Source: an uncultured Chloroflexia bacterium (lineage in GTDB: Bacteria; Chloroflexota; Anaerolineae; CG2-30-64-16). Taken from it: 64,000 nucleotides of DNA. Location: assembly GCA_963810095.1 (NCBI GenBank), contig CAWEMM010000006.1, positions 1,419,353 through 1,483,352 on the forward strand. The letters are read 5' to 3'. Positions 1,431 through 64,000 of this stretch are shown here, piece after piece. How positions within the stretch are numbered: the stretch's first letter is position 1; every line of letters starts with the position of its first letter. The notes under the pieces are model-generated. The model ran no database searches and was not told where the DNA came from. It saw nothing but the letters and a program-made list of their open reading frames with translations. The position numbers and the translations under genes are program-made.

Positions 1431-3364
1431 ATGGTCCCGATGAGCACTGATTCGATGGCCCGGGCCGGGCGGCGTGCGGAGTGGGTCTATGCGGGCCTCG
1501 TACTGCTGTTTGGCTTGGTCGTGATCGCGCCGCTGTTGCAGCCCGGTTACTTCTGGGGCGCGCACGACGCACGGCACGACGTCTACTTTATCCAGCAGTA
1601 CGGCCTCTCGTTCAAAGAAGGCATCCTCTGGCCGCGCTGGTCGCCCGACTGGACGTTCGGCTACGGCTATCCGTTCTTCACCATCTACGCGCCCTTGTCC
1701 ACTTTCGCGGGCGTGTTGTTCAACCAGGTGGCGGGCCTCGGATACGAGGCAAGCGTCAAGGCGGTGCTGGCGCTCTCGGTGCTCGGCTCCGGGCTGGCGA
1801 TGTACGGCTTCGTGCGCTCGTGGCTGGGCCGGCGTGCCGGGCTGGTCGCCGCAGTCGCCTATATGGCGGTGCCGTATCACCTCGTCAACCTGTTTGTGCG
1901 GGCGGCCCTGGCCGAGTCGGTGGCGCTCGCCTTCCTGCCGCTGGCCCTCTGGGCCTTCAGAGAGGCAGTCGTCCGCCCCCGAATCCGGTCCGTCGTCGCG
2001 GCGGGGTTGACGTTTGGCGCAATCATGTGGACCAGCAACCTCGTGGCGCTGGTCTTCACCCCCGGGTTGGCCGCGTACGTCCTCGTGCTGATCTTGCTGG
2101 AGGCGCGCGGGCGCCAGGCAGAAGGCCGGAGTTTTCTGCGCAGCCTGTGGACGCCCGACACGCTGCGCAGCGTCCTGGCGCCCGGGCTTGCGCTCGCGCT
2201 GGGGCTCGGCCTCAGCGCGGCCTTCTTCGTCCCCGCGCTGGTCGAGCAAGGGTCGTACATCAACAAGACGCAGTGGTTCGGCGATTACTACAATCCCGAG
2301 CAGCACTTTGTCTACTTCAACCAGTTGTTCGATCCGCGTTGGGGCTTCGGCATCAGCCAGGCCGGACCGGACGATGCCGCACAGGGCAGCCTGAGCTACC
2401 AGTTGGGCGCGGCCGCGACGTTGTTCTCGATTATCGCGCTGGCGCTGAGCGGGCGCTTTCGGCCGCGCGTGCGGGCCGAGCTGCGCTTCTGGGGCCTCTG
2501 GCTGGTCGTTGCGGTCTTCCTGATGCTGCCCGTTTCGGTGCTGGCCTGGCGCTACGTGCCCATCGTCCCGTACGCGCAGTTCCCATGGCGCTACCTGATG
2601 CTGGCGATCCTCCCCCTGAGCATCCTGCCGGGCGCACTGATTGCGCTGCCCGGGGCTGCCGACCGGCGTCCTTCGACTGCGCTCCCTTCGGTCGCTCCGC
2701 TCAGGATGCCGGAGGGTGCGGGTGGCGCGCTGGGGGCGTCTTCCCCGCCTTCGTGTTGAGCCTTGTGCTGCTGCTCTCCAGCGCGCCCTACCTCCAGGTT
2801 GAGATTCGCGAGCCGACGGCCGAGCAAGGCCCGGTGTCGATGGCCGCCCTGATGCGCTTCCAGCGCACGAGCGACGAGATGACCGGAGTCACCGCCTGGG
2901 TGGACCCGGCCCAGCGGCCCATTTGGTCGACGATGGCCGACCTGTGGGTGCAGGGGCAGGCAGTCACCAGCCGGGTGGACTACTCGCAGGTGCCGCAGAA
3001 CGAGACGCTGGCGATCAACACGGAAGACGTGGGGACCGCCCACGAACAGATCTTCTTCTATGCCAAGGACCCCGGCAAGTCGATCACGTTCAATCGCTTC
3101 TGGTATCCCGGCTGGACGGCGTGGCTGCTGGATGGGAAGAACGGCCGGCCGGTGCGCAAGTTGGATTTGCAGCGTGAGGACGGGCCGCTTGCACGCATCG
3201 TGGTGCCCATCCCCCAGGGTGAGGGCTACATTTTGCTGCGCTTTGAGGATACACCACTGCGGCGGGTGTCCAAGCTGGTGACGCTGGCATTCGTAATTGG
3301 CCTGTTGGCAATACTGGCGGTCGCGTACGTGCTGAGGCGCCGCCGGTCAGGGAGGAGTGCATGA
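1431..3364 (+). pseudogene. polytopic membrane protein, paralog of 13038..14936, with a single frame disruption
   Basis: The N-terminal two thirds lie in ORF 1431..2759. The C-terminal third (FVLSLVLLLSSAPYLQVEIREP... to stop 3364) lies in the frame of ORF 1481..3364. The gene is colinear with the intact 632-aa paralog (HDARH and FPWR motifs). The frames join if the G5 run at 2732-2736 is really G6. Confidence 0.8.
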
Positions 3365-3933
3365 TCTCAGATAATTTGTGGACCGGTCCCAACCTGCGTC
3401 TGACCGGCCTGGAGCGATTCGATGCCCGGGCCTTCTCCATGTGGCACAACGATGCGGGCTTTTTGCGGCTGCTCGATGCGGAATATGCGCGCCCCCGCAG
3501 CGAGGACGAGTGCGTCAAGTGGTTCGAGGATTGGCAGCGAGACGCGAAGATGATTGCCTTTGCCGTGCGCCCGCTGGCCGCCGACGACCTGGTTGGCGTC
3601 GTGATGCTGGAAAGCATCCTCTTCCAGCACGGGGTCGCATGGTTGGGCATGGGCTTTGGCAATCGCGAGCAGTGGGGCAAGGGGTACGGCCGCGAAGCGA
3701 TGTCGCTCATCCTCCGGTATGCCTTCAGCGAGCTGAATTTCCACCGGGTGCAAGCCAGCGTGTTCGAATACAACACGCTTTCCATCGGGATGTGCGAGCG
3801 GGCGGGGTTCCGGCGTGAGGGTGTGTTTCGAGAGTTCCTGCTGCGCGACGGCCGGCGCTACGACATGTACCTTTACGGCGTATTACGTGCAGAGTGGGCG
3901 GCCCTGAACGGCGGAGGAGAAGACATTGGCTGA
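3361..3933 (+). CDS. GNAT family N-acetyltransferase (RimJ/RimL-like)
   Basis: The GNAT core is recognisable: GNREQWGKGYGREAMSLILRYAFSELNFHRVQASVFEYNTLSIGMCERAGFRREG. The ATG overlaps the upstream stop (ATGA at 3361-3364). Confidence 0.85.
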   Translation: MISDNLWTGPNLRLTGLERFDARAFSMWHNDAGFLRLLDAEYARPRSEDECVKWFEDWQRDAKMIAFAVRPLAADDLVGVVMLESILFQHGVAWLGMGFGNREQWGKGYGREAMSLILRYAFSELNFHRVQASVFEYNTLSIGMCERAGFRREGVFREFLLRDGRRYDMYLYGVLRAEWAALNGGGEDIG

Positions 3934-4738
3934 CGAACGGCCGTTGATCCTGTTGACCAACGACGACGGGATTGCTTCGCCCGGGTTGCTGGCGGCAGCG
4001 GAGGCGGTGTGCGACCTGGGCGAACTGCTAATTGTCGCGCCCGCCACCCAACAGACAGGGATGGGTCGCGGCACGCCGCCGATCCTAAACGGGGCGCTGA
4101 CGGTCGAGACGCTGCGGGTCGGGTGCGAGGACGTCCGTGTGTATGCATTGAACGGCTCGCCCGCGCAGACGGTCGTGATTGCGGTGCTTGGCATCGCGGA
4201 GCGGCGGCCGGCGCTGGTGGTCTCAGGCATCAACCACGGCGAGAACCTGGGCACGGCGGTGACCGGGTCGGGCACGGTTGGGGCGGCGCTGCAGGCGGCC
4301 GAAATGGGGATTCCGGGCTTGGCCGTATCGCTCGAGGTCGAGAAGGTCTACCACTACAACCACGCCGAAGACTTGCACTGGAGCGCGGCCGCGCACTTTA
4401 CGCGCTATTTTGCACAGCGCATGCTGGCCCAGACCATGCCGTTCGACGTCGACGTGCTCAAGGTGGACGTGCCGGCCGAGGCGACTGCCGAGACGCCCTG
4501 GCGTATCACAAGACAGGCGCGGCAGTCGTATTACAAGGTCTATCCGCCAAAGATGCGTCTGGCGCCCGGGCCGCTGGCAGAGCTCGACTATGGGATCGAG
4601 ATCGATTGGGATGACCTGCCGCAGGACACGGACGTCTACGTCTTTGCGCGCGAGCGGGTGGTGTCGGTGACGCCGTTGAGCCAGGATCTGACGTCACGTA
4701 CGGACGTTGCCGGCCTGGAGCGCCTGCTGCGGGGCTAG
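3926..4738 (+). CDS. surE: 5'/3'-nucleotidase SurE
   Basis: SurE signatures are present: ILLTNDDGIASPGL, SGINHGENLG and GSGTVGAALQAA. It uses a TTG start preceded by GGAGGAGA. Confidence 0.9.
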   Translation: MADERPLILLTNDDGIASPGLLAAAEAVCDLGELLIVAPATQQTGMGRGTPPILNGALTVETLRVGCEDVRVYALNGSPAQTVVIAVLGIAERRPALVVSGINHGENLGTAVTGSGTVGAALQAAEMGIPGLAVSLEVEKVYHYNHAEDLHWSAAAHFTRYFAQRMLAQTMPFDVDVLKVDVPAEATAETPWRITRQARQSYYKVYPPKMRLAPGPLAELDYGIEIDWDDLPQDTDVYVFARERVVSVTPLSQDLTSRTDVAGLERLLRG

Positions 4739-4784
4739 TGTTTGGTGGGCGACCGGCCAGAGCATGACGGGGCAAATGGTGATG

Positions 4785-5125
4785 TTTGTTGGGGGCCGTC
4801 TGGCCCCCAACGCCCCCGACGGGGGGCTGCGCCCCCTCGTCCCCCAAAGGTTAAGGGGACGCGTGGCTTCCGCCAATTGGCCCATTTGAGCGTCCACATG
4901 GCGGGGCCAGACGGAAGCGGCTTGCGGGAAACCGGCATTTTGTGGAAGCACGGTTCTGATGCCGACTGCCGTGAGCGAGTCCGGCTGCTGCCCGCTGTCA
5001 ACACGGCCGGGGGCGTTGACCTTGGGGGTTTCGGGGGCAAGGCCCCCGAGGCGGGGGCGGCGGGGCAAGCCTGCCCCCGCCAAGACAAGATGTAGCAAGG
5101 GCGGCGGGGCAAGCCGGCCACAACA
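4785..5125. repeat. composite GC-rich hairpin repeat, copy A (full length)
   Basis: It contains ordered modules. First is the hairpin GTTGGGGGCC-gtct-GGCCCCCAAC (4788-4811). Next come GGGGCTGCGCCCCCTCG, GGCTTGCGGGAAACCGGCATTTTGTGGAAGCAC and the hairpin TCGGGGGC-aag-GCCCCCGA (5031-5049). It ends with GGCGGGGCA...TGCCCCCGCC. The same order is seen at 42896-43287. Confidence 0.8.
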
Positions 5126-5141
5126 GTGAGGTTAATTGACA

Positions 5142-6818
5142 ATGTCGAAACGTCTGCTTGCATTATTCCTGATTCTTCTAGTCAGCCTGGTCCTGGCTGC
5201 GTGCGGCGGGCCGGCCACCCAGCCGCTGAGCTACCGCCCCGCGCCGTGGCAGAGCGGGGAGGTCAGCCGGTACGACCTGGTGGACCGCGGCGGCGCCACC
5301 GTTGGCACGGCCGAGTGGACGTGGCAGCGCGCCGGCGATCAGTGGCGCCAAGGCTACACCGTGACCGTCAACGGCGTGCCAGACACGGGCGAGGTCGTGC
5401 TCGACAACAGCTTGAAGTCGTTGAGCTCGTGGCGCGAGGTGGGCGGCAAGCGCTTCGATACCACGTACGGCGCGAAGACCATCGAGGTCAAGACGACGGC
5501 CGCGGACGGCACGGTCACGACGAAGAGCCTGCCCGCACCGGCCGACGCAATCGACAACGACGTCTCGCTGCAGATTCAGCGGGCAATGCCGCTGGCGGCG
5601 GGCTATGCGACCCGCTACACCGACATTATCCCGACCACGGGCGGCGCGGCGCCCATCGTTCTGAGCGTCACCGGCGCCGAAACGATCACGGTTCCCGCGG
5701 GCACGTTCCCGACGTGGAAGGTCAAGATGGCGGTGGGGTCGACCGCGCACGAGGCGTGGTACGCGCAGCAAGCGCCCTACGCGATGGTGAAATACCTCAA
5801 CTCGGGCTCGGGTGCGCAGTTCGTGCTGACCGGCCTGGCAGGTGCCGCATCTGCGACGGCGTCACAGCCGGCGGCCACCCCGGTTCCGGGCGCGGCTGCA
5901 GTTGCTGGCGAACCGGGGGCCATGGCGCCCATCAACTGGCTCTACCTCGCGCTTGTCGTGTTCATCCAATTGCCCTTCCTGCTTGGCTTGCCGATCGTCT
6001 TGGGCTGGTGGATCAAGCGGCGGTATGGCATCGGCTGGGGGGTGTTCGGGTGGGGCGCACTCTCGTTCATCCTGTCGCAGGTCGTCCATATCCCGCTCAA
6101 CATGGCGCTGGGCCTGATCGGCGCGCCGCCCCGGGGCGTGGCCCTGGCGTCCCCCTTCGTGCTCGGCCTGGTCGCCGGCCTGAGCGCGGCGGTGTGCGAG
6201 GAAGGTATGCGGCTGCTCGTGATCACCGTCTTCGCTAAGAAGATTCGCGGCTGGCGCCCCAGTTTGCAGTTCGGCGCGGGGCACGGCGGCGCGGAGAGCA
6301 TCATTCTCGGCCTGCTGGTGGCCGTGAATCTGATCGGCATCCTGGCCTCGCGCAACCTCGGCGCGATTGGACAAGTGCTGCCCCCCGAGGCAGCCGCACA
6401 ACTGCAGGCCGCGCAGGCCGCATTCTGGGGCCAGAGCCCCTGGATTCCATTCGTCAGCGTGATCGAGCGCATTTCGGCTCTCGCCTTGCAGGTGTCGCTG
6501 GCCGTGCTCGTAGTGGCTTCCGTTACGCGGCGCCGGCCGCTCTACTTCGTCGCCGCGCTTGCGCTGCACACCGTGGTCGATGGTTGGACGATCTGGGCGC
6601 AGCCGCTCGGTGTGGCTGCGATCGAAGCCGGGGTGGCGCTGGCGGGACTCCTGGCCCTGTGGATTATCTGGCGGCTGCGTGAGCAACCCGCTGCCCTCCA
6701 ACCCGTATTAACAGGTGAAGCGGGCAGCAGCCCGGTTCCGAACGCAGCCGACCTGTCCGAGCAGGCGCTTTCACCTGATGAGCTGGCCCGGCGGGCCGAG
6801 CGGTCGCGGTACGAGTAA
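5142..6818 (+). CDS. lipoprotein-type N-terminal domain fused to a YhfC-family intramembrane metalloprotease
   Basis: The signal and lipobox read LLALFLILLVSLVLAAC. A soluble domain of about 250 aa follows, then a multi-TM domain with AAVCEEGMRLL and FGAGHGGAESIILG (YhfC/CPBP-like motifs). ATG 5142 lies behind GTGAGG; the track's alternative TTG is at 5136. Confidence 0.75.
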   Translation: MSKRLLALFLILLVSLVLAACGGPATQPLSYRPAPWQSGEVSRYDLVDRGGATVGTAEWTWQRAGDQWRQGYTVTVNGVPDTGEVVLDNSLKSLSSWREVGGKRFDTTYGAKTIEVKTTAADGTVTTKSLPAPADAIDNDVSLQIQRAMPLAAGYATRYTDIIPTTGGAAPIVLSVTGAETITVPAGTFPTWKVKMAVGSTAHEAWYAQQAPYAMVKYLNSGSGAQFVLTGLAGAASATASQPAATPVPGAAAVAGEPGAMAPINWLYLALVVFIQLPFLLGLPIVLGWWIKRRYGIGWGVFGWGALSFILSQVVHIPLNMALGLIGAPPRGVALASPFVLGLVAGLSAAVCEEGMRLLVITVFAKKIRGWRPSLQFGAGHGGAESIILGLLVAVNLIGILASRNLGAIGQVLPPEAAAQLQAAQAAFWGQSPWIPFVSVIERISALALQVSLAVLVVASVTRRRPLYFVAALALHTVVDGWTIWAQPLGVAAIEAGVALAGLLALWIIWRLREQPAALQPVLTGEAGSSPVPNAADLSEQALSPDELARRAERSRYE

Positions 6819-6829
6819 GCGAGGATTCG

Positions 6830-7798
6830 ATGATTCGCACAGAGGCATTATCAAAACACTTCGAGAGCGACGGCCGAACAATCAAGGCCGTCGACGGGCT
6901 GGACCTCCAGGTGCAGGAAGGGGAGGTGTTCGGCTTTCTCGGCCCCAATGGCGCGGGAAAGACGACCAGCGTCCGCCTGCTGACCAGCCTGATTGCGCCA
7001 ACGGGCGGCCGCGCCTGGGTCAACGGCCTGCAGTTGGGCGAGGACGACGCGAAGATCCGGGCCAGCGTCGGCATTCTGACCGAGTCGCCCGGGCTGTACG
7101 AGCGGCTGAGCGCGTTCTATAACCTGCAGATTTTCGGCGAGCTGTACGGGTGCAAGGACCCGAAGGGGCAGGCCGAGAAGTACCTGCGGCTGCTGGAGTT
7201 GTGGGACCGCAAGGACACCGAGGCCGGAACGTTCTCGAAAGGCATGAAGCAGAAGCTGGCCATCGCGCGGGCGTTGCTCCACGAGCCGCCGGTCGTGTTT
7301 CTTGACGAGCCGACCTCGGCGCTTGACCCTGAGTCGGCCAAGACCGTGCGCGAGTTTATCGAGACGCTGCGCGGACAAGGGCGCACCATCTTCCTCTGCA
7401 CCCATAACCTGGACGAGGCGGAGCGACTCTGCGACCGGATCGGCGTGTTCAAGCAGCGGTTGATCGCCGTGGACACGCCCGACGCGCTACGCAAGAAACT
7501 CTTTGGCCGCCAGACCGTGATCCACCTGGCGCCGGGCAGCGAAGCGGGGCGGCTGGCGGGGGCTGTCGAGTGCTTGCCGGGCATCAAGCACGTGGAGACG
7601 CTGCCTGCGGCCGACGGCGAATCGCCCAAGCTGGTGATCAGCCTGAATGAGCCGGCCCAGCAGAACCCTGCCATCGTGCGCGCCCTTATCGAGCAGGGTG
7701 CGGCCATCCAGTTCGTGAATGAGCTTCGGCATTCGTTGGAAGATGTGTACCTGAGCCTGATCCACAGCGGTCCGACCGGAGAAGGGGGCGCCAAGTGA
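6830..7798 (+). CDS. ABC transporter ATP-binding protein (ABC-2 type exporter)
   Basis: It has Walker A GPNGAGKTT, the signature-like FSKGMKQKLAIARAL and Walker B VVFLDEPTSALD. Confidence 0.9.
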   Translation: MIRTEALSKHFESDGRTIKAVDGLDLQVQEGEVFGFLGPNGAGKTTSVRLLTSLIAPTGGRAWVNGLQLGEDDAKIRASVGILTESPGLYERLSAFYNLQIFGELYGCKDPKGQAEKYLRLLELWDRKDTEAGTFSKGMKQKLAIARALLHEPPVVFLDEPTSALDPESAKTVREFIETLRGQGRTIFLCTHNLDEAERLCDRIGVFKQRLIAVDTPDALRKKLFGRQTVIHLAPGSEAGRLAGAVECLPGIKHVETLPAADGESPKLVISLNEPAQQNPAIVRALIEQGAAIQFVNELRHSLEDVYLSLIHSGPTGEGGAK

Positions 7799-8586
7799 GC
7801 GCGATAGGCACAGTGGTTAAGAAAGAGTGGATGGAGGTCCGCCGGAACAAGCTGGTGCTGTCCGTCGTGCTTTTCATCCCACTGCTGATGACGGCGATTC
7901 CGCTCGTGATGATGGGGATTATGGGCCGGGTCGGCGCGAGTGCGAGCGATATGGAAGAAATGAGCATGATGCTCAAGAACCCCATCTTCCAGGGCATGAG
8001 CCCCAACGAAGCCATCCAGGCAACGTTGGCGTCGAACTTCCTTGTGCTCTTCCTGATGATGCCGCTAATGGTGCCGGTGACGATCGCTGCCTACAGCATC
8101 GTGGGCGAGAAGGTTACTCGCTCGCTCGAACCGCTGCTTGCGACGCCCATCAGCACCACCCGGTTGCTGCTGGCAAAGGGGATTGCCGCGGCCGTGCCGG
8201 GCATCCTGGGCGCGTGGATCGCCTACGTGGTTTTCCTGATAGGCGCTCGCTTCCTGGCCGTCAGCGACCAGGTGTTTGCGATCTTTCTGAACCCGATGTG
8301 GTTGGTCGCTATGCTGGTGCTGGCGCCCCTGCTGACGATCATGGCGGTCAACGTTGGCATTATCGTCAGCAGCCGCACGTCAGACCCGCGCGCCGCAGAG
8401 CAGCTCGGCAGCCTGATCATCCTGCCGCTGATGGTGCTGTTTCTCGGCCCGCTGGCCGGCTTCATCCAGCTCAACGTGACCACCTTCATGGTTGCGGCGC
8501 TGATTGCCCTGGCGGCCGACGTCGTACTGGTGTATCTGGGCGTGAAGCTGTTCCAGCGTGAGACGATCCTGACCCGCTGGAAGTAG
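7795..8586 (+). CDS. ABC-2 family transporter permease
   Basis: This 263-aa protein has about 6 hydrophobic spans. Its start overlaps the ATPase stop (GTGA at 7795-7798). Confidence 0.8.
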   Translation: MSAIGTVVKKEWMEVRRNKLVLSVVLFIPLLMTAIPLVMMGIMGRVGASASDMEEMSMMLKNPIFQGMSPNEAIQATLASNFLVLFLMMPLMVPVTIAAYSIVGEKVTRSLEPLLATPISTTRLLLAKGIAAAVPGILGAWIAYVVFLIGARFLAVSDQVFAIFLNPMWLVAMLVLAPLLTIMAVNVGIIVSSRTSDPRAAEQLGSLIILPLMVLFLGPLAGFIQLNVTTFMVAALIALAADVVLVYLGVKLFQRETILTRWK

Positions 8587-8631
8587 GGGCATCGCGCACC
8601 CGGCCGCGCATCTCGGCAGTCGATTGAAACA

Positions 8632-8703
8632 CCAAGAACCGAAGAACCAAAGGTGCACGAAGCCCAAGAGGCTTTGCGGACCTTAGGCTTCTTCGGTTCT
8701 TCG
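8632..8703 (+). other. long imperfect stem-loop downstream of the ABC permease gene
   Basis: AAGAACCGAAGAACC pairs with GGCTTCTTCGGTTCTT, and an inner AAGCC/GGCTT hairpin is present. No T-run follows. Confidence 0.4.
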
Positions 8704-8821
8704 TGTGAACGGCCGTCCGCACAGGGGTCTTGCCCGTGTTGACGATCTCGGCGAGGGAACTTATGCTTGAGTTCCCTCGTTTTGTTGGCGGGGTTTTTTC
8801 CCATTCAGAGGAGGCGGCGTA

Positions 8822-10987
8822 ATGAGCCGTGGCCGTCGGACTTATCTCTACAGCGTGGCCTTGTTTGGCCTCGTGGCTTCGCTGGTCAGCCTGGTATCCT
8901 TCTTGTGGCGGTTTTTCGCCGCCCGCGCCGTGGACCTGCTCGGGGCGTCGCCCCTGACCGGGGTGCTGGACTCGCCCGCGCTGCCCTGGCTGATACTCTT
9001 CCTGCTGACCCTCGCCACGTGGCTCTATCACATCATCGCCGCAAACCGGGCGGCCCGCCCGCTGACCATGGCCGGGGCCGCCGAACGTGCCGCGCCCGAA
9101 CGCAAGATGTACCTCTACATGGGGCGGCTGGCTGTTGTGGCGGTCCTGGCCGGACAGGCCTGGCTGCTGATCCGCCACGTGGCCGTTGCATTTCTCGACA
9201 ACGGCGTTGCCGGCTTACGGGCGGGCAGCGGGTGGACCTTGGCGCTGGCCGCGGGGATCGTCGTCGCCCTGGGTTACTACGTCTACCTGCGCGTCGAGGC
9301 GAGCCGCGATGGTGACTTGGGTCAGGAGCGGGGCAAGGCGGTGCTTTGGCGGAGGGCGTACACGTACGCGGCCGCGCTGGCCGGCGCGCTGCTGACATTC
9401 CTCGGCGGCGGCGAGTTGATCCGTGCGGGGATCCGGGTCTTGATGACGCCGCTGAGCCGCGACGTGACGTGGCATGGTCCTGCCGCGGCTGCGCTTGGGG
9501 CGCTCGTCGTCGGCTTGCCGCTAAGTGCAGCGGCCTGGGGCGCGGCGAACCGGGCCGCGACCATGAACGCGCCCTCGGAGACGAACGCGCTCAGCCGGGT
9601 GCTGCTGCGCTACGGCGGCGTGCTGGTGGCGACGCTCGTCACCCTCGTGGCGTTGGGCTACCTGGTCGAGCAGATCATCCTGACTGCCATCAGCCGGCCG
9701 GTCGGAAATGCAGGCCGGGCCTTATTCGGCATGTTCGACTGGACCTGGGCGCTGGCCTACCTGCCCGTGGCCGCGCTGATGTGGATCAGTTTTTCGGGCG
9801 GCGCGCGGACGGATGCGCTCTGGGGTGGTGAGAAGCCGCGCACGGGCGGCATCCGCCGGGTTGTCCGCTACCTGCTGACGGCGATCTCGCTGGTCGCCTT
9901 CTGGTACGGCTTGACGGAGTTCACGCGGCTGATTCTCCAGGTGTTCCTGGGCGCAGACTCGGCCACGGGCAGCGCGGCCGAATGGGTCCAGCGCTTCGCG
10001 ACCTCGGCGGCGTTCCTTCTGATTGGCGCGCCGGCGTGGTGGGGTCACTGGTGGTCGCAGCAGATGCGCGTGCGTTCGGAGAACTACGAGAGCCGCGGCA
10101 CAGCCGTGAGCGAACGGGGCTCGCGGGTGCGGCGTGTCTACCTGTGGGGGGTTCTGCTGGTGGCTGCCGTGGTGGTCGTCGCCGCGTTTGGGTTCGCCGT
10201 GGTGCTGGCGTTGAACTGGCGGTCGGCCGGCAACCTCGGCGGGGTGCGGGCTGCGGTGGCGGGCGCCGTGGCCGCGGCAGTTGTTGCCGCGTTCTGGGCA
10301 CTCGTCCACGGCCTGGTGTTGAGGAGTGACATGCGTTATCTGTCGCGGGGCCAAGCCGCCGGCGCTGCGGAGCCCGTCATCGTCGCACCGCTCGTGCCGG
10401 CGGCTGCGGCTGCTCCGGCCGGCATCGGGCCTGTCGCAGCGGCCGCGGCCGTCGCCGGTGTAAGCCGGGCGGCGCCGGGCGGGACGCAGCCCCAGCCCCT
10501 TGCCGAGAGCCGCGAGTATCGCCGGGAAGACCTGGCGCCGCTGGCCGCGCAGGCGGGTTTGGACGTCGTGGCAGGAGGGGCAACACCCGCCCTGGTCATC
10601 CTGGACGGTGCCGATGGCGCGCTGGGCGCGCAGCTGACAGCAGCGCTTCGTTCCGCATTCCCGACCGCAGCGCTCTGGCCGGTGGGGTTGAACGAGGTGG
10701 CGCACATGGCTATGCTGGGCGCGCTGGGCCAGGAGCCGCCCGTCCTGCCCGACGATGCCTTCGACCGGGCCGCGGGCATCCTTGCGCCGTCGGACGTGCT
10801 GATCCCCGGTGCGTTGGATGGGCAGGTCACTGCCGAACTGGTCGAGGCGCTCGCGCGGACCACCGCCCGGATCATGCTGCTGCCCCCGCACGACGCCCGG
10901 CTGCGCTGGGTGGCCGCGCCGAATTGGCCGGTGGAGCGCTGGGTGGAAAACGCGGTGATCGAAGCGGGAAACGTGCTTGGGGCGTAA
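8822..10987 (+). CDS. large membrane protein with six repeated TM-hairpin modules plus a C-terminal soluble domain
   Basis: ATG follows GAGGAGG. A module starting R(R/K)xYLY/W recurs: RRTYLYSVALFG, RKMYLYMGRLAV, RRAYTYAAALAG, SRVLLRYGGVLV, RRVVRYLLTAIS and RRVYLWGVLLVA. No enzymatic motif was recognised. Confidence 0.8.
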   Translation: MSRGRRTYLYSVALFGLVASLVSLVSFLWRFFAARAVDLLGASPLTGVLDSPALPWLILFLLTLATWLYHIIAANRAARPLTMAGAAERAAPERKMYLYMGRLAVVAVLAGQAWLLIRHVAVAFLDNGVAGLRAGSGWTLALAAGIVVALGYYVYLRVEASRDGDLGQERGKAVLWRRAYTYAAALAGALLTFLGGGELIRAGIRVLMTPLSRDVTWHGPAAAALGALVVGLPLSAAAWGAANRAATMNAPSETNALSRVLLRYGGVLVATLVTLVALGYLVEQIILTAISRPVGNAGRALFGMFDWTWALAYLPVAALMWISFSGGARTDALWGGEKPRTGGIRRVVRYLLTAISLVAFWYGLTEFTRLILQVFLGADSATGSAAEWVQRFATSAAFLLIGAPAWWGHWWSQQMRVRSENYESRGTAVSERGSRVRRVYLWGVLLVAAVVVVAAFGFAVVLALNWRSAGNLGGVRAAVAGAVAAAVVAAFWALVHGLVLRSDMRYLSRGQAAGAAEPVIVAPLVPAAAAAPAGIGPVAAAAAVAGVSRAAPGGTQPQPLAESREYRREDLAPLAAQAGLDVVAGGATPALVILDGADGALGAQLTAALRSAFPTAALWPVGLNEVAHMAMLGALGQEPPVLPDDAFDRAAGILAPSDVLIPGALDGQVTAELVEALARTTARIMLLPPHDARLRWVAAPNWPVERWVENAVIEAGNVLGA

Positions 10988-11006
10988 CGAGAAATGACAA
11001 GGGCGA

Positions 11007-11048
11007 GGCATTGCGGCCTGCACTGCTCGCAGCGCAGGCCGCAATGCC
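11007..11048. terminator. bidirectional hairpin between convergent genes
   Basis: GGCATTGCGGCCTGC (11007-11021) pairs perfectly with GCAGGCCGCAATGCC (11034-11048). Confidence 0.7.
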
Positions 11049-11055
11049 TACGCCC

Positions 11056-12315: not shown

Positions 12316-12354
12316 GGTTTGCTCCTGAAGGGATAGACCGTCGCATCTTACCCA

Positions 12355-12436
12355 AGAAACCCGCTTTCTGCCAGAACCACCTTTAGGAAACCAGGTTTCT
12401 CCGAGAAACCGGGTTTCTGCTCTCGCATGCTATAAT
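12355..12436 (+). promoter_or_regulatory. three copies of the palindrome (A/G)GAAACCnGGTTTCT upstream of a TATAAT box
   Basis: The copies are AGAAACCCGCTTTCT (12355-12369), GGAAACCAGGTTTCT (12386-12400) and AGAAACCGGGTTTCT (12404-12418). TATAAT lies at 12431-12436. The region sits between divergent genes 12315(-) and 12476(+). Confidence 0.55.
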
Positions 12437-15351: not shown

Positions 15352-15361
15352 CGGTTAACCT

Positions 15362-53927: not shown

Positions 53928-53976
53928 ACCGGAGACGTCGAAGAACGAGGGGTCGTGGATAGCTGGGGAGAGCATC

Positions 53977-55530
53977 ATGACCGCAGTCAAGACCCCGTGG
54001 CGTCAATCGATGCCGGATTTCCTCCAGTTTCTGGATGGAACGCTGGGACACAAGGTCAAGCTCCACAAGGAAGTGCTCGGCTATGACCTGTATCTCGTCG
54101 ATCTTTCGGACTGGAAGCTGCGCTTCTCCGACCGCACGCCCTTGATCATCGTCAAGGAAGCGCGATCTGGCGTCGATGAGTGCCCGCGAGCTCGCGCAGA
54201 GCCTCGCCGAGGTGGTCCGCGGCCAGTCGCTGGCAGAGCGCAACCCCATCGTCGTCGTGCAGGGACCCGGCAGAGCGAACTCAAGGAGCAGCTGCACGCC
54301 GACGTACCAGCCGCTGCTGGTGCTGGACGAGGCGGACGTGCAGGCCGTGCGCGAGTCGCGGCGGCCCTCGGGCGAATTGCTCGACCGGCTCGCGCCGCAG
54401 CTCGACCTGTCGCTCCTGACGCCCTACGAGACGAGCAAGCCCGTCACCGGCTCGCGCTTCTTCGGCCGGGAGTTCGAGGTGCGCCGCATCCTGCAGACGC
54501 GGCGACAGCAATTTCGCCATTATGGGCATCCGGCGCATCGGCAAGACGTCGCTGATGCGCGAGATCGAGCGCCAGCTGAAGGAGCAGGCGCAGGAGGCCG
54601 AGAGCGAAGAGACGCTGGAGCGCATCATCTTTATGGATTGCAGCGCCATCGCGTCGCCCGAACAACTTCATCCAGGAAGTCGTGCGCAAGCTGCGGCCGC
54701 AGGAGCTGACGCGGCTGTCGTCCAAGCAGTACCCGATCTTCTTCCCCGATTTCCTCGAGCGGATGGCGCAGCGCTACGGCGGCCCGATCATGTTCTTCCT
54801 CGACGAGTTCGACAAGGTGCTTACCTGGCACTACGAGGACGACTCGCTGCTCAACGCGCTGCGGGCGTCGAGCAACCAGGGTCACTCGCGCTATATCGTC
54901 GGCGGCTTCCGCGATGTGATGCGTGCGTTCAGCGACCTGGAATCGCCCCTGTACAACTTCGCGCGGCCCATCCGCCTCAAGGAGTTCAGCCGGGAGCAGG
55001 CCGCGGCGATGATTCTCGGCCCGCTGGAGAAGTTGGGCGTGCAGTTCGAGCGCCGCAACGACGTGGTCAACCGCATCTTCGACGAGACCGCCGGCCAGCC
55101 GAACCTGATCCAGTTCTACTGCAGCATCCTGGTCGAGCGGCTGGACCGCGAGGGCAGCCGGCGCATCGCATCGCTCGCCCGAGAGCCTGTTCGACGTCTA
55201 CGGCAACGACGATTTCCGCGCGTTCGTGCTCAGCACCTTCATGGATAACACGACGCACCTGGAGAAGGCGATCGTGTTTGCGGTGATGGCGGACCTGGGC
55301 GCGGAGCATCCATTCGGCGTCCAGCAGATCGACGGCGCGCTCGAACGTCGCGGGCGTCGAAATCCCGCTGTCCGACCTGGACCTTGCCTGCCGCAACCTG
55401 GAGCTTGGCGGGCACCTTCACCTCGCGCGGGCCGATGTTCCGCTTCGCGACGCCGGTTTTCCCGCGCATGCTGAGCGAGAACTACGACGTAGACTACCTG
55501 TTCCGCAAAGTGCTGCAAGAGGGCATCTGA
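53977..55530 (+). pseudogene. AAA+ ATPase (Arch_ATPase/ORC-like P-loop) with an unknown N-terminal domain; six +1 frame disruptions
   Basis: The frame order is 1>2>0>1>2>0>1. It starts with MTAVKTPWRQSMPDFLQFLDG, followed by FFGREFEVRRIL. The Walker A-like motif is MGIRRIGKTSL and the Walker B-like motif is IMFFLDEFD. Later fragments read AGQPNLIQFYC and ...YLFRKVLQEGI-stop. Confidence 0.7.
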
Positions 55531-55532: not shown

Positions 55533-58386
55533 ATGAGCGCTAGCATCGAAGCCTGGCGGATCGTTCCCTACGAAGGAGGCGCATCGCCCGTTCAAGAAGG
55601 TGCGGGTGCGCGACGAGGCCGCGGGTGCGCGCGGTCGTGCGGCACCTGATGAACGACGAGTGCGTCGCCTTGCTCGGTCCGCCCATGAGCGAGAAGAGCC
55701 ACCTGCTGCGGGACGTGGCGGAGGCGCTGGAGCAGGGCGGTCGCTTCCGGCCGCTGCATATCGACTTGTGGCGCACACGATCGAACGATGAGGCCGCCTT
55801 CTTCACCAGCCTTGCCGAGTCTGCTGGCCGACGAGCTGCGGGACGCCGGCGCCGCGAGTCCCGACGAGCCGGCCGAGCACGCGCGGTTCCAGGGTTATCT
55901 CGCCGCTTGCGAATGCGAGCGGCCGCAGCCTTGCGCTGCTGATCGATCACCTGCAGGCGCTGCCGCACGACCTCGTCCACAGCCTGCTGCGTCGCCCTGC
56001 GCGCGGCCTACATGGAGCGCGAGGCCGACGCGCCGCACAGCCTGGTCGCGGTGGTCACCGGCGGCATCAACCTCGTCGGTCTGTCCGTCCGGCCCGACCT
56101 CGCCGTTCAACATCGCCAAACCCGTGGTCGCGACACCGCTGACCCTCGAACAGAGCCGCGCGCTGGCCGAGGCGACGCTCAAGCGCTGGAGTGCTCGGCA
56201 TCCGCCAACGGCATGGACCGCTTGCTGAGCCTGGGCGCAGGCGACCGGTACCTGATTCCGCGGCTCTGCGCCGACAGCTCCGAACTGGTCAGCTTGCACC
56301 GCCTGCACCGCGTGACGTCGGCCATTGCGGATCGCGCCGGCGCGGGCGCTCGTCGCCCGCGGACGCGGCCGCCGCCCGTTCGCGCCGCCATCCGCATGAT
56401 CGAGGAAGACCCGGACACGGTGCTGGACGTGCTGCACCTGCTCGACCACGGCTCGCTGCCGCGCTCACGCTCGCGCCAGATGCCGACGCGCACCGGCACG
56501 GACCGGCTGCAGCTCTCGGGCGCGGTGGTCCTGGTCGGATGGGTGCTACGGCTTTATGAACGAGGCGTACCGCGAGGCGTTGGCCGCGCACTTCACCACC
56601 GACCGGGTCGGGCACATGTTGCGGATTGCCGGGCCGGTGGAGCGAGGCGATCGCCTATCTCGCGCCGCAGCGGGCGCGCGTCGCGCGTCCGCAGCTGCTC
56701 GAAGCCATCGTCCAGATCGATCTATGCGAGCTGACTCGTCCGAACAGGCGTATCGGGCTGCTGGCCGACGGCCTGCGGCTCGGCTTCGGCCTGTCGGACA
56801 TCGGCATCTACTGCGGCGCTGCCGGCCGACTGCTCAGCTCGACCGCGTCTATCCGCCCAAGGACGGCGGCCCGAGGAGCACGTCGACCTGCGCGATCCCG
56901 GGTGCGTCGAGGCCCAGACCTTCAACCTGGGCAACTATGCGCTGCGCGGCACCGCGGATGAGGCGCGCCTGGTCGTCGCGCTGGCATCGGCCAGCCGGCC
57001 GCTCGGCGTCGTGACGATCGAACGCTATGTGCAGAACCGCGATCCGCACGAGCTGCCCGACGAACTGCCCGACCTGCTGCGTTTCCTGCAGCACGCAGTC
57101 CGGGGCGCTGGAAAACGTCATCACTCGGGCTGCCTACCGCGCCATCGGACAGGCCGTGCTGGATGCCAAGGCCATGCAGCCGACCGTGGAGCGGGTGCTC
57201 GAGACGGTAGCGGAGGCGCTTGGGCTGCGACTACGGCGCCCTGTATCTGCGGGATGAGACCGCCGCCAGCTGGAGATGGCCGCAGCAGTCGGCAGGGTGG
57301 TGACGGAGGAGTGGCAGGCGCAGGCGCGCTTTCCCCTCGACGGCCGACACCCCGCGGTCACCGCGCTGCTGGAGGGGCGGATGTTGACGGCGCGAGGGGG
57401 CGAGGACGCAGAGGACCGCGTGCTGCACGACCGTTTCGGCCTGCACCGCTACCTGCGCGTCTTCCTGCCTCTGCTCGCCGGCGGCGAACAGCTCGGCACG
57501 CTCGAACTGGGCTACGCGAGCCGGCCGCATGCGCATGTCGGATGAGCTACAAGCGGACGCTGGTCGAGTTCGCCGACCAGGTGGCGATCGCGGTGCATAA
57601 CATGCTGCTGCTGCGGCGGACGGACGAGGCGCTGGCACGCGCAAGCTGGCCGAGCTTGTCGGTGGGCCGCGAGATTCAGCTCAGCCTGCTGCCGAAGGTC
57701 ACGCCGACCGTTCCCGGCTGGCAGTTCGCGGCCATGTACGAGGCCGCCCGCACCGTCGGCGGCGACTTCTACGACTTCTGCGAATTGCCGGGTCCGCCCG
57801 CATCGGCTGGGCGTCGTCATTGCCGATGTGGCGGACAAGGGCGTGCCGGCCGCGCTGTTCATGGCGGTCAGCCGGACGATCATTCGCAGCGTCGCGCTTC
57901 ACCGGCCGCGGCCCGGCCGTCTGCCCTGATGCGAGCGAACCAACTGATTCTCGCCGACAGCCAGGCCGACCTGTTCCTGAGCGCGATCTACCTGGTGCTC
58001 GAGACCGACAACGGGCGCGGATTTCGTTCAGCAACGCGGGGCACAACCGGCCGCTGCTGGTACCGCGCTGCGGACCGCGCAGCTCACGCGAGCTGACCCA
58101 GCGCGGCATCATCCTGGGCGCGTTCGACGAGATCACGCTGCAGGACGACACGGCTGGACCTGGCCGCCGGCGACGTGCTGGTGCTGTACACGGACGGCGT
58201 CACGGACGCGCTCAACGCGGACGGGCGAGGAGTTCGGCGAGCAGCGCCTGTTCGACGTGGTGCGGGGCAGCGCCGCACGGCAGCGCGCAGGAGATCCTGT
58301 GGGCGATCACGGGCGCGCTGGCGGGCTTCATCGGCGACACGGAGCAGGCGGACGACGTGACCTGCGTCGTGATCAAGAAGGACTAG
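55533..58386 (+). pseudogene. STAND-like ATPase fused to two GAF domains and a PP2C/SpoIIE phosphatase; at least 12 +1 frame disruptions
   Basis: The fragments begin with VALLGPPMSEKSHLL (P-loop) and LALLIDHLQALPHD. The GAF-like fragments are LETVAEALG..GALYLRD and FLPLLAGGEQLGTLELGY. The SpoIIE fragments are [53 protein letters not shown] and DDVTCVVIKKD-stop. Confidence 0.7.
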
Positions 58387-59709: not shown

Positions 59710-61518
59710 GCCTGTGGGTAAGGGGCTGTCCGAAAAGTAATCGGGCGGCCCCTTTTTTGCGTGCTTTTCTCGCGTTCTTTAAGGATTCATGGTTTAATGG
59801 GGGCATGAAACGCAAACCTGCTGCCCCCGTCTTCAAGCCCTACACGATGGCTCAGCCGCAGTTGCTGCCGCCGAGCCTGGATGAGTTGATCGAGCCGGAC
59901 CACCTGGTGCGGGTGGTAAATGCGGCGATCGACCAGTTGGATTTGCGGCCGCTGCTGGCGCAGTACCCCGGCGGCGGGACGTCCAGCTATCATCCGCAGA
60001 TGCTGCTGAAGGTGTTGGTGTACGCCTATTGCAGCAAGATCTACTCGTCGCGGCGGATTGCGGCGGCGCTGCGGGAGAACATTCACTTCATGTGGTTGAG
60101 TGGCGGGAACCGGCCGGACTTTCGCACGATCAACGACTTTCGCGGGCAGCGGATGAAGGGCGTGATCGACGCGGTGTTCGCCGAGGTGCTGCAGTACCTG
60201 GTCGAGGCGGGGTACGTGCAGTTGGAGCACTACTTCGTCGACGGGACGAAGATCGCCGCCGATGCGAACCAGCACAAGGTGGTGTGGGCCAAGCGCACGG
60301 CGCGTTACCAGCAGCGGGTGCGGGAGCAGATCGCGTGAGTTGCTGCGGCAGATCGAGCAGGTGAATGCTGACGAGCAGGCCGAGTACGGCGATGCCGATC
60401 TGGAAGAGCGGGGCCGGCGGTGGGGGTGGCGAGATCGACTCGGACGCAACTCAAGGAGCGCATCGACCAACTCAACCAGCGGCTCCGCGAGCGTCAGCAC
60501 CCCAAGCCCGAAGCCCAGGCAGCCGAGAAGGCGCTGAAGAAACTGGCGACGGATTGTCTGCCGCGGTTGGAGAAGTACGAGCAGCAGACCGCGACGCTGG
60601 CGGGGCGGTCGAGCTATGCCCAGACCGACCCGGACGCCACGTGCATGCGGATGAAGGAAGACCGCGGCGCCGAGCGGCCCTGGCCCAAGCCGGCCTACAA
60701 CGTGCAGGTGGGCACGGAAGGGCAATTCATCGTCGGGTTCAGCGTGCACGACCAGGCGGGCGACACCGGGTGCCTGATCCCGCATCTGGAGCAGGTGCGC
60801 CAGAACACCGGCGGCCGCTTACCGCAGAACGTGGTGGCGGATGCGGGGTACGGCAGCGAAGAGAACTACGCCTATCTGGAACAGCAGCAGGTGGGCAACT
60901 ACCTCAAGTACAACACCTTCTACCAGGACACGCATCATTACCGCGACCCGGCCGTGCTGCGGGCGCACCAGTTCCGGGCCGAGAACTTCGCCTACGACGC
61001 GGCCACCGACACCTTCGTCTGCCCGGCCGGCCAGCGGCTGCACTTCCAGTACACCACCCGCTACACCAGCGACAACGGCTACCTGAGCGACCGCCGCATC
61101 TACGAATGCTTCGCGTGTGCCGACTGCCCGCTGCGCAGCCAGTGCACCCGGGCCAAAGGCAACCGCCAGATTCGCATCAGTTTCCGCTTGCTCGCCTACC
61201 GCAAGCAAGCCCGCGACAACCTGACCAGCGCCGACAGGTGAGCGCTTACGCGCCGCGCGCTCCGTCGAGGTGGAAACCGTCTTCGGGCATATCAAACAGA
61301 ATATGGGCTTCCGGAGATTTCACTTACGCGGGCGGGCGAAAGTGAAGACCGAATGGGGGCTCGTGAGCATCGCTCACAACCTGAAGAAGGTGGCGGCCGC
61401 ATAGGCCGCTTTTTTTCTCCGCTTTCCGCGAGCTCCAACTCATCTCCCGCTGACTCCGAATCGGCACAAGAAAGGGGCTGCCTGGATGTTCTTTCCAGAC
61501 AGCCCCTTACCCACAGGC
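59710..61518 (+). mobile_element. IS1182-family insertion sequence, nested 5 nt after the IS481 transposase stop
   Basis: The terminal inverted repeats are 28 bp with 2 mismatches. The left one is GCCTGTGGGTAAGGGGCTGTCCGAAAAG (59710-59737). The right one is the reverse complement of CTTTCCAGACAGCCCCTTACCCACAGGC (61491-61518). I saw no clear target duplication. Confidence 0.8.
59805..61404 (+). pseudogene. IS1182-family transposase with four +1 frame disruptions
   Basis: The frame order is 0>1>2>0>1. The fragments are MKRKPAAPVFKPYTMAQPQLLPPSLDELIEPDHLVR..., ELLRQIEQVNADEQAEY, QLKERIDQLNQRL...DAGYGSEENYAYLE...CPLRSQCTRAKGNRQI and the tail VEVETVFGHIKQNMGFRRFHLRG...NLKKVAAA-stop. Confidence 0.85.
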
Positions 61519-61760: not shown

Positions 61761-61762
61761 CA

Positions 61763-64000
61763 TCAAGGGCGGCGGGGGCCCGCGGGACCGGGCCAAAGCG
61801 GGAAACCGCCGCCCGTCACAGGCAGGGTGCCGGGCCCACGCAGGACGTCCGACTTGAAGCGCGGGATGATACGGTAGCCCGCGTCGGGCGTCTTCTCGCC
61901 CACGGACTGCCCCAGGACGCCCTGCCGCGGCCCACATCTGCCCGATCTGCACGTAGGGGCGGCGCCAGGGCAGGCTCTCGGGGAAGTAGATGCGGATCAG
62001 CCCGGCCCTGTCTTTCAAGACCAGGCCGCGCGTCTCGTACTTGACCACCGCACCCACGACCTGCACGAGCCTCCCCTCGTTCGCTTCTGCCAGGTCCGCC
62101 GAGGTGACCGGCTGCGGCGCGACAGCCTTGCCTTCGCCCAGCACTGTTAAGTAACCGGCATCGGGGACAGATAACTCGGTTTCTCCGTAGAAGTCGCGGG
62201 TCCAGCCCGTGACCCGCACCCGGCTGCCCGGCTTCAGCGTGGGATAGTCGCCTTTGCGCAGGTAGACCTTGATGCCCCCTGTCTCGTCCTGCAAGTAGAT
62301 CGTCTTCGCAATCAGCCCGGGCGGGAAAGTCACGGTGCCGCTGACGACGGCGCGACTGTCTACCTTCGCCGAGCGGGCCGCCGCGACGGTTTGCGGAACC
62401 GGCGGGGGCGTGGCTTGGGGCGGAGCAGGCGCCGCGGGCGCAGGAGGCGGCAGCAGGCGGTTCGGCTGGCCCGGCGTCGCCTCGCAGTCGGACGTCCACC
62501 CGCCTACGCCGTCGGTGTTCCGACAGTAACTGCGGTCTGCGCCCGGCCCATGGTCATAGGCGAAGCGGTCTGCCAACGTCCCGTCGCTCCTGGTGAGGGT
62601 CACCGAGTCGCGCCAGTCGCTCAGCGAGAGACGGGTCTGGCCGCGGAAGAACAGCATGAAGCTGTGGGGCCAGATCACGGCGCCCGCGGGAATGCGGTAG
62701 CTCGCGGCCTCATCGCCGATCTGCCAGCCCTCCAGGGGGACGGCGCTGCCCGTCGGATTATGCAACTCGATCCATTCGTCCGAGAAGTTCGCCGTGCCGT
62801 CGCGATCCCAGTCGACCGAGCGCGGGTCAGGGAGGATTTCATTCAGCTTGACCTTCAGCGCATCGGGCGGGAGCGGGGTGGGGGTCGGCGTCTGCGTGGA
62901 CGTGGGCGAGGCCGTGACGGTGCCGGTGGGAGTGCGCGTTGGCGTGACAGTGCGCGTGGGTGTGGAGGTGCGCGTGGGCGTGACGGTACGCGTGGGTGTG
63001 GAGGTGCGGGTGGGCGTCGGCGTGGCGGCGGGATCGCGGGTTGGGGTCGCGGTCGGCGTTGCGGTGGGCACGAGGGTCGTGCGCTCGCCTGGGTTGGGCG
63101 CTTGGCGGGTCCAGTCCGCCGCGCTGTCACTGTCCTGGAGGTTCCAGCGGCCTAGTGACTCGCCGGCACGCACTTTCTCGCAGGGCGGCTCGTTAATGCT
63201 CGTGTCCGAGCCGTAGCTCATGGCGTCGACGACGGTGGCGTCGGGTGCGAGGAGGCGGACCGCGTCGCCGGTGTTGCTCAGCCCGTTGCCAATGGCGCCC
63301 TCGAGGCTGACGAGCAGGCCCGAGAAGCCGGGGAAACTGGCGCGGAACGCGGCTTCTTTGGCGGCAACAACGGCATATTCGCCGGGCAGCAGGCTGAACT
63401 CGGGCAGCGCGTCCTGGCCCGTGTTGTCGCCGATGCGCCAGCCCGAGAGCAGGACCGCGTCGCCCGTGGGGTTCACGATCTCGACGAACTCCCAATCGGC
63501 ATCCGCGCCGTCTTGGATAGGGTCGTACAGCACTTCACTTAGGAGCAGCTTCGGCCAAGCCGCCGGATACGGGAGAGTTGGCGAAGGCGTCGGCGTGGCT
63601 GTGCGGGTGGAGGCGGGCGTGCGCGTGACTGTAGGCGTGCGGGTGACCGTGGGACTTGGGCCGGCCGTTCGCGTCGCAGCCGGCGTGCGGGTTGCGCTCG
63701 CGGTCCGAGTCGGAGTCCGCGTGAGGGTTGCAGTCCGCGTGATTGCGGTCCGCGTTGGGCTCGCGGTGCGGGTTGGGCTGGGGGTGCGGGTCGGCGTCGG
63801 AGTGGGCGTGCTTTCGATCGTCCCGCTCACGCCGGGATTGGGGACCGATTGCCCATACCAGTCTTCTGCCGTGCCGGTGTCCATGTCGCTGGGGATACGC
63901 GACAAGGACTCGCCGGCCGCTACCCCGGGGCACGCCGGGTCGAACGCCGTCGTATCTGAGCCATAGCTCATCGCATCTGCCAGCACGCCGTTCGGCGCCA
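61763..64000 (-). pseudogene. secreted multi-LTD (lamin-tail-domain) / OB-fold protein; 5' end outside the window, with one +1 disruption near 61935
   Basis: There are three LTD-like repeats (SEVLYDPIQDGADADWEFVEIVNPTGDAVLLSGWRIGD; NEILPDPRSVDWDRDGTANFSDEWIELHNPTGSAVPLEGWQIGD; a partial one at the window edge). They are separated by TPTRT-type linkers. An OB-like region follows (VVSGTVTFPPGLIAKTIYLQDETGGIKVYL). The tail GVLGQSVGEKTPDAGYRIIPRFKSDV lies in the next frame. Confidence 0.8.
62932..63020 (-). repeat. 36-bp tandem repeat (about 2.5 copies) encoding the Pro-Thr-Arg linker
   Basis: Unit 62932-62967 and unit 62968-63003 differ at 3 positions. They encode STPTRTVTPTRT repeats within the LTD protein. 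Confidence 0.8.

Follow-up and report, generated by a model that had tools for sequence, protein, structure and literature searches.

Insertion-biased frame breaks in a 64-kb Anaerolineae contig segment as probable consensus errors of a long-read metagenome assembly

Why so many conserved genes in one stretch of bacterial DNA can be read only by moving between frames is the question raised by a contig of an uncultured Chloroflexia bacterium (GTDB: Chloroflexota, Anaerolineae, CG2-30-64-16; NCBI GenBank assembly GCA_963810095.1, contig CAWEMM010000006.1, positions 1,419,353 to 1,483,352 of the forward strand). We analyzed this stretch of 64,000 nucleotides, here called the window, which has a G+C content of 67% and a gene order syntenic with metagenome-assembled genomes (MAGs) of Anaerolineae/Chloroflexota. 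An earlier note, made from the letters alone, had reported at least 50 frame disruptions, essentially all in the +1 direction, and had read them as a consensus or polishing artifact on the strength of their insertion bias. Ortholog alignment confirms that the frame breaks are present in the window and are more numerous than was stated, as frameshift-aware alignment gave about 93 frame-breaking indels across 21 genes. We conclude, with a probability of roughly 0.93, that they did not arise by mutation in the organism but are consensus errors left uncorrected in a metagenome assembly from long reads, most likely from Nanopore alone.

In the window, frequent changes of frame on the same strand were evident from a plot of third-position G+C by frame (GC3) and from Viterbi segmentation by codon usage. 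Events were called with a local protein-to-DNA aligner written here, which tolerates frameshifts by charging a penalty for each insertion or deletion of 1 or 2 nt in the DNA. Every gene was aligned against two to four orthologous references, drawn from the syntenic relatives L001 to L016, L029, L081 to L083, L084, and L085, and the references for the transposase of an IS1182-family insertion sequence (IS) were the homologs P0122 to P0125. When genomes were scanned with the window's ELP3-like radical-SAM protein (17359-19095), 80 loci were returned, the closest at 76 to 77% amino-acid identity. A search with the GH2 protein yielded three further syntenic loci (L081 to L083), which cover ~38 to 62 kb of the window, and a metagenome scan added L084 and L085. 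The best contigs in that scan were at most 93% identical and no same-species contig was present in the collections searched, so that a base-by-base check against the organism's own species was not possible. As a baseline, the method gave 0 events in L083 (13 genes) and six short-read-style loci, ~86 kb in total, and a single event over 118 kb from other short-read-style loci, where short-read status was read from contig names (NODE_, k141_). Events at 1357-1442, 12322-12461, 19277, 25771, and 26717-26764 were discarded, either because they fell in the noncoding upstream extension of stop-to-stop reference open reading frames (ORFs) or because one reference only supported them.

The direction of the breaks is strongly biased. 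Against the primary reference of each gene, there were 71 events of +1, 10 of +2, 5 of -1, and 2 of -2. The total comes to ~93 with five further events of the +1 class, four of which lie in the IS1182 transposase and one in a gene for a cyclic nucleotide monophosphate (cNMP)-binding protein. The earlier note had allowed that careful alignment might reveal a mix of insertions and deletions; what was found is ~86 insertions, of which 10 are of 2 nt and roughly 76 of 1 nt, as opposed to 7 deletions (binomial p = 2e-18). Of the 93 events, 78 (84%) shift the frame in the +1 direction. One extra base per step is right for most of the steps, but ten events are 2-nt insertions and the step at 34405 is a 2-nt deletion. 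The +2 events are true 2-nt excesses because gene lengths agree; the M29-like gene, for instance, has 1383 nt for 456 codons, or 15 extra nt, which equals 11 × 1 + 2 × 2. Clean 1-nt deletions lie at 51415, 56182, 56878, and 57260. The -1-class shift in the gene at 1431..3364, the one exception that the earlier note had listed, is real. A G5 run does exist at 2732-2736 in that gene, and the proposed repair by addition of a G is plausible but not provable.

The positions proposed from the letters alone held up well. All 16 listed junctions were recovered to within ~15 nt, namely, 16888 at 16889, 22065 at 22071, 22388 at 22387, 23125 at 23125, 26085 at 26089, 27180 at 27177, 28160 at 28146, 29050 at 29045, 33805 at 33821, 34025 at 34026, 34395 at 34405, 42200 at 42207, 44905 at 44911, 48370 at 48371, and 61935 at 61925 by frameshift-aware alignment, and 37985 at 37993 by codon-usage Viterbi segmentation and ORF overlap only. 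The frame progressions were also reproduced, with two steps in the PrsW gene, four in the IS1182 transposase, five +1 steps in the GH2 gene (plus a -1 at 51415 that had not been listed), and the single steps elsewhere. In the ATPase gene, six steps are visible and eight events underlie them, because the +2 at 54273 is offset by the +1 at 54301.

One rival explanation of the broken genes is decay. Genuine pseudogenization, such as might follow a change to host restriction or relaxed selection, would make the frameshifts real mutations. Many genes are struck, including IS transposases, which are often true pseudogenes, and two IS elements adjoin the block in which the events are densest. Consecutive broken conserved genes together with IS elements are also seen in reductive, pseudogene-rich genomes such as those of Mycobacterium leprae and recent symbionts. 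Unlike those genomes, however, the window has no deletion bias, nonsense mutations, sequence erosion, or substitution excess. Bacterial pseudogenes decay by deletion-biased mutation, a bias reportedly described by Mira, Ochman and Moran in 2001 and by Kuo and Ochman in 2009, and the ratio of insertions to deletions in the window is the opposite. Moreover, when the extra bases were removed, all 20 genes with a full-length reference gave full-length, essentially gap-free, collinear matches. There were no in-frame stops in the corrected genes, and no larger deletion, nonsense codon, or loss of collinearity was found across ~45 kb of aligned coding sequence. Every corrected protein tested gave single continuous Pfam matches that span the shift sites.

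The corrected genes are also no more diverged than their orthologs, since their identity to orthologs equals the identity among orthologs. The window and L081 on the one hand and L083 and L081 on the other are, respectively, 93 and 94% identical for the nSTAND ATPase, 83 and 85% for the GAF-SpoIIE phosphatase, 89 and 87% for the M29-like protein, and 74 and 73% for the GT4 glycosyltransferase. A four-taxon singleton test found no substitution excess on the window branch in the dense block (unique nucleotide changes: window, 179; L081, 249; L083, 267), and the unique changes in the flanking genes were 529, 509, and 472, respectively. Neutral decay is therefore disfavored, as several hundred substitutions would be expected where 66 indels sit and substitutions were not raised there, and 31 indels in a gene that is still 83% identical over its full length cannot be neutral accumulation. 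Finally, the affected genes include PrsW and the broadly conserved extracytoplasmic function (ECF) sigma factor, HtrA, and UbiB, and the signature recurs in unrelated contigs of Nanopore-only MAGs, whereas MAGs of the clade that were built from short reads are free of it. Pseudogenization is thus highly improbable.

Alternatively, the cell might read through the breaks by programmed recoding, with ribosomal +1/-1 frameshifting or transcriptional slippage restoring the frame. In prfB, dnaX, and IS3-family transposases, as in the window, the protein is readable only by a change of frame. Nothing specific favors recoding here, although IS elements sometimes use programmed frameshifting. The comparison with orthologous loci that the earlier note had proposed showed the orthologs in L081, L083, L084, L085, L002, and L003 to be in a single frame at every site. 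Because the orthologs of every affected gene are in one frame, no shift site is conserved and recoding is refuted. Moreover, a programmed site occurs singly, is conserved, and depends on a motif, whereas the sites in the window are missing from orthologs, reach 31 in one gene, and are spaced at random. They share no common slippery motif, and their contexts are CG rich and heterogeneous. We give recoding practically no chance.

Where the breaks fall is extremely uneven, a feature that had been missed, and most lie in the GT4, M29-like, and GAF-SpoIIE genes. The density is ~0.06 events per kb from 1 to 16 kb (a single event, the -1 exception), ~0.7 from 16 to 35 kb, ~0.3 from 35 to 49 kb, ~2.5 in the GH2 gene (49.2-51.4 kb), and ~9.5 from 51.45 to 58.4 kb. 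The stretch 3400..16510 serves as an internal control, in which neither the ortholog-aligned genes (6806-16510) nor the long intact ORFs (3926-6818) contain a single frameshift. At the 16- to 35-kb rate of 0.7 per kb, the Poisson probability of 0 events over 14 kb is 5.5e-5, and thus the insertion-free start is significant. At the other extreme, the block at 51.45-58.4 kb (6.9 kb) holds 66 indels, or one per 104 nt, of which 62 are insertions and 4 are deletions. It spans four consecutive genes, with 14 events in GT4, 13 in M29-like, 8 in the nSTAND ATPase, and ~31 in GAF-SpoIIE, and the spacing fits an exponential distribution, that is, a random one (mean, 104 nt; Kolmogorov-Smirnov p = 0.23).

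The dense block stops ~100 nt to the left of a nested IS481/IS1182 insertion that relatives lack. The outer element of the nest, of the IS481 family, has inverted repeats of 17 nt (58486-58502 and 61554-61570) and encodes an intact transposase of 380 aa (58563-59705). An IS1182-family element at 59710-61518, whose 28-nt inverted repeats are 93% complementary, splits this outer element. In the relatives L082, L084, and L085, the SpoIIE and lamin-tail-domain (LTD) genes are directly adjacent, without the nest.

What was added at each break could be determined for 1-nt insertions by deleting each base near the junction in turn and rescoring against the references. For 33 of the 70 insertions located in this way, all acceptable solutions were unlike both neighbors, with a run length of 1, so that at least 47% of the extra bases do not extend a run. 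Homopolymers of ≥5 nt carried an event in 1/167 cases (the A5 run at 51504-51508). Classical homopolymer-length error, familiar from 454, Ion Torrent, Nanopore R9, and PacBio, also breaks frames by single-base indels, and shortening of a G5/G6 run at 2732-2736 may account for the lone -1 exception in the gene at 1431..3364. Homopolymer-length error was nevertheless rejected on both of the above counts. The events in the window are insertions that lie mostly outside runs, whereas homopolymer errors of Nanopore and PacBio usually shorten runs (PMC11649196).

The insertions outside the dense block, here called sparse, have a context of their own. CGCG lies within 3 nt of 11/20 sparse sites (1.4 expected; 0/2000 random placements reach 11), CCGCG at 10/20 (1.0 expected), and a central extra base in GCG or CGC fits 11/19 (3.2 expected). 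CGCG is as dense in the first 16 kb as it is in the 16- to 35-kb region. At 22385, 27179, and 57517, where the solution is unique, it is the insertion that makes the CGCG, which the corrected sequence lacks, such that CGG or CCG becomes CGCG. In the dense block, contexts are nearer random and all four bases are inserted; of a possible GATC/Dam-type motif there, only weak enrichment was seen, for CGATC (5 versus 1.6 expected; p ~0.02 before multiple-testing correction).

A specific CGCG context is what mutational hotspots might leave, and the insertions could be products of real insertion-biased hypermutation, by loss of mismatch repair or a slippage-prone polymerase on CG-rich DNA, seen as population heterogeneity in the metagenome. 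Loss of mismatch repair, however, mainly alters the length of homopolymers, which are the very runs that were spared. Moreover, substitutions are not raised alongside the insertions, and among relatives the signature follows the assembly technology. To our knowledge, there is also no biological precedent for a 6.9-kb block with 1% insertions beside clean sequence. Hypermutation is hardly credible as the source of the breaks.

Whether other assemblies carry the same signature could be asked with the same aligner. Nanopore-only MAGs gave 16 insertions and 2 deletions over three loci, with six +1 and one -1 in L082 and four +1 in L001, both from the closest relative (MFD05942.bin.2.46), and six +1 and one -1 in L015 (MFD04716.bin.2.35). 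CGCG-containing runs host 6/6 of the insertions in L082 and about half of those in L001 and L015. Since contigs of sister public MAGs carry insertion-biased frameshifts, the error mode is not unique to the window. In L082 (4282-16241), insertions split the ABC1 gene (369 + 237 aa) and the nSTAND ATPase gene (77 + 399 aa). These MAGs belong to Microflora Danica (MFD), a long-read catalogue produced with Guppy, Flye, and one round of Medaka, without short-read polishing, and the authors of the catalogue themselves note errors linked to Nanopore and a low coding density where the coverage of a MAG is low (PMC12313526).

The window and the Nanopore-only MAGs (Flye plus Medaka) are alike in their gene-fragmenting 1-nt indels, presumably depth-dependent density, insertion bias, and CGCG sites. 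They differ in that the density at 51.45-58.4 kb is ~25 times that of the sister MAGs, and in that the published concern for such MAGs is with long homopolymers, whereas the errors of the window sit elsewhere. The platform is documented for the sister MAGs, and comparison with them suggests that the window likewise comes from Nanopore, in a comparable long-read metagenome assembly. The intact corrected genes, the lack of a substitution excess, and the same bias in Nanopore-only MAGs thus lend independent support to the artifact that had been proposed from insertion bias alone.

An artifact need not be a Nanopore artifact. Low-depth PacBio continuous long reads (CLR), a hybrid assembly with a raw-read bridge, or deliberate or simulated corruption might also produce extra bases. 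PacBio CLR errors are insertion dominated, and the abruptness with which the dense block begins and ends would be natural in a bridging segment that was poorly polished. A raw-read bridge, however, would also bring mismatches and deletions, which were not seen, and uniform simulated corruption would give neither the CGCG enrichment nor a clean 16-kb stretch. Moreover, the sparse CGCG-linked insertions match those of the documented Nanopore-only MFD MAGs. An artifact of other origin is therefore quite unlikely.

Several observations weigh against Nanopore consensus error as the answer. In the wider family (Caldilineaceae comparison), most long-read MAG loci are nearly event free; the signature belongs to particular MAGs, probably according to their depth, and is no universal property of long-read assemblies. 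A near-pure insertion spectrum, free of substitution or deletion noise, is unlike raw Nanopore reads. Since mismatches and deletions belong to raw Nanopore noise, the dense block would have to owe its bias to the consensus or polishing step. A literature search found no published CGG-to-CGCG error mode. In addition, that the extra bases would lack read support is argued from the assembled sequence, and the platform is assigned by analogy with the sister MAGs.

Two components can be seen among the errors. The sparse component adds single C or G bases in a CG-rich context, typically turning CGG or CCG into CGCG, at ~0.3 to 0.7 per kb over 16-49 kb and again at 61925 to the right of the block. 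In the dense component, at 51.45-58.4 kb, insertions of 1 or 2 nt and of any base are scattered at random, about one in every 104 nt. The dense block, which lies beside the IS repeat, may have had very low read depth or been skipped by polishing, and the consensus step there would have retained the extra bases. Perhaps the CGCG-linked insertions of the window and of two sister MAGs are the footprint of a lineage-specific DNA modification that misled the basecaller or polisher, for example, N4-methylcytosine (m4C) or 5-methylcytosine (m5C) in a CG-rich motif of the Anaerolineae clade. We consider this doubtful. That CGCG is created by the insertion argues against a preexisting methylation motif, without excluding one. 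If a modification were responsible, the error positions would map an epigenetic motif. In any case, the CGCG-linked insertions would be a reproducible, nonhomopolymer Nanopore error mode of high-GC genomes, in which CGG or CCG is read as CGCG and for which the homopolymer-focused quality checks in current use do not look.

As deposited, the window would have 21 genes annotated as fragments or pseudogenes, and its 6.9-kb stretch is unreadable without orthologs. On the consensus-error explanation, gene loss, pseudogenization, or an odd mutational bias inferred from this genome would be false; the frame breaks would carry no biological message, and the remedy would be repolishing. Insertion-biased, mostly nonhomopolymer errors in CG contexts are a failure mode to flag in long-read MAG catalogues, and they can pile up in blocks beside repeats while neighboring sequence stays clean. 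Because the errors are concentrated locally, genome-wide metrics such as coding density and CheckM scores can mask ruined regions.

The affected genes can be followed from left to right. The first, for a PMT_2/PTPS-related membrane protein (1431..3364, plus strand), has one -1-class shift, either a 1-nt deletion or a 2-nt insertion, where the alignments of four orthologs leave frame 3 for frame 2. Because the linker there varies in length, ~2646-2759 is the narrowest interval to which the shift can be assigned. Within 15 kb, this gene has two paralogs that likewise encode PTPS-related/PMT_2-like membrane proteins (43-1416 and 13038-14936), and all three products are probably glycosyltransferase-39-like enzymes. 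In the S-adenosylmethionine (SAM)-dependent methyltransferase gene (16592..17309, minus strand), called Trm9-like in the earlier note, the extra base is at 16889/16890 in CCGCGAG by 4/4 references, and Methyltransf_23 is unbroken after correction. The PrsW-family protease gene (21960..22903, plus strand) has extra bases at 22069-22071 and 22385, the latter a C between two Gs (4/4 references; Pfam continuous). The hypothetical membrane protein gene that follows (22903..23521, plus strand) has one at ~23126 (4/4 references).

Four consecutive entries on the minus strand carry one extra base each. In the HtrA-like serine protease gene (Trypsin_2 plus PDZ; 25804..26716), the base lies within 26086-26090 in the context GCCCGCGC (3/3 references), and in the LuxR-type response regulator gene (26823..27465), it is a G at 27179 between two Cs (3/3 references). 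The calcineurin-like phosphoesterase gene (27480..28560) has it at 28146/28147 in the context CCGCGCGG (4/4 references), and Pfam matches are continuous in all three proteins. In the histone-deacetylase-family gene (28565..29468), it is at 29044-29046 (2/2 references), and Hist_deacetyl residues 19-277 are unbroken.

The genes for a sigma factor and an anti-sigma factor are also interrupted, both on the minus strand. The anti-sigma factor gene (zf-HC2; 32204..34176) has extra bases at 33821/33822 and 34026/34027, as indicated by ortholog alignment and Pfam. In the ECF sigma factor gene (34324..34921), the +1-class shift at ~34405 is the 2-nt deletion noted above, in which a Leu codon has shrunk to a single C inside a CTCTCT repeat; it is supported by two references, one of them 93% identical, and by Pfam. 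A single, intact tRNA-Leu(CAA) at 35299-35382 (60 bits versus Rfam RF00005) sits in a 0.7-kb noncoding stretch between the sigma-factor gene and the gene for an SH3-domain protein.

Between 37 and 49 kb, breaks are fewer. The cNMP-binding protein gene (37069..38812, plus strand) has one +1-class shift near 37993, beside GGGCGCGAAG, which rests on codon usage and the overlap of ORFs 37069-38478 and 37739-38812, as the ortholog (L082) covers the C-terminal part only. The penicillin amidase gene (40392..42888, plus strand) has an extra C in the CCC run at 42206-42208, beside GCG (3/3 references). The ABC1/UbiB kinase gene (43291..45061, minus strand) has an extra base at 44911-44913 in the context ACGCGGCG and encodes a protein 90% identical to that of L083 after correction. 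In the gene for a conserved 185-aa hypothetical protein (47888..48458, minus strand), previously called HD, ortholog alignment places an extra C at 48371/48372.

The GH2 beta-mannosidase-like gene (49180..51463, plus strand) has 1-nt insertions at 49253, 49561-49563, 50138-50142, 50640/50641, and 50989-50993 and a 1-nt deletion at 51415, and its corrected alignment to 760-aa orthologs is gap free at 70% identity. The four genes of the dense block follow on the plus strand. The GT4 glycosyltransferase gene (51480..52457) has ~14 events (10 of +1 and 4 of +2), or 18 extra nt, and the gene for the M29-like 466-aa protein (52515..53897) has 13 (11 of +1 and 2 of +2), with 89% identity to L081 after correction. 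The nSTAND/AAA ATPase gene (53962..55527) has 8 (7 of +1 and 1 of +2), supported by DNA alignment as well, with 93% identity after correction. Within it, 55124-55175 is 7 nt longer than the corresponding stretch of three orthologs (CGCATCGCATCGCTCG versus the shorter GCCGTCTCG), which looks like a short CATCG tandem duplication combined with an error or else like one extra base beside a true insertion of two codons. The GAF-SpoIIE phosphatase gene (55533..58383) has ~31 events (24 of +1, 3 of +2, 3 of -1, and 1 of -2), the positions of which agree among four independent references. The ATPase (~512 aa) and the GAF-SpoIIE (PP2C) phosphatase (944 aa) form a conserved pair (53962-58383) that is syntenic in all relatives at 83 to 94% identity, unusually high compared with ~70% for neighboring genes.

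To the right of the block, the IS1182-family transposase gene (59805..61401, plus strand) has +1-class events near 60336, 60415, 60443, and 61233. The transposase is 93 to 94% identical to homologs of 531 to 532 aa, and the gene spans 1597 nt versus 1593 to 1596 expected. In the LTD protein gene (61811..63989, minus strand), ortholog alignment places an extra C at 61925/61926 in the context GCCGCGG. Finally, the relative L083 (GCA_050262095.1, JBLNDY010000167.1), in which 13 genes are syntenic with the window at 70 to 94% identity, has its GH2 protein labeled "Nitrososphaerales archaeon" in NCBI, and the contig is probably misbinned in an archaeal MAG.

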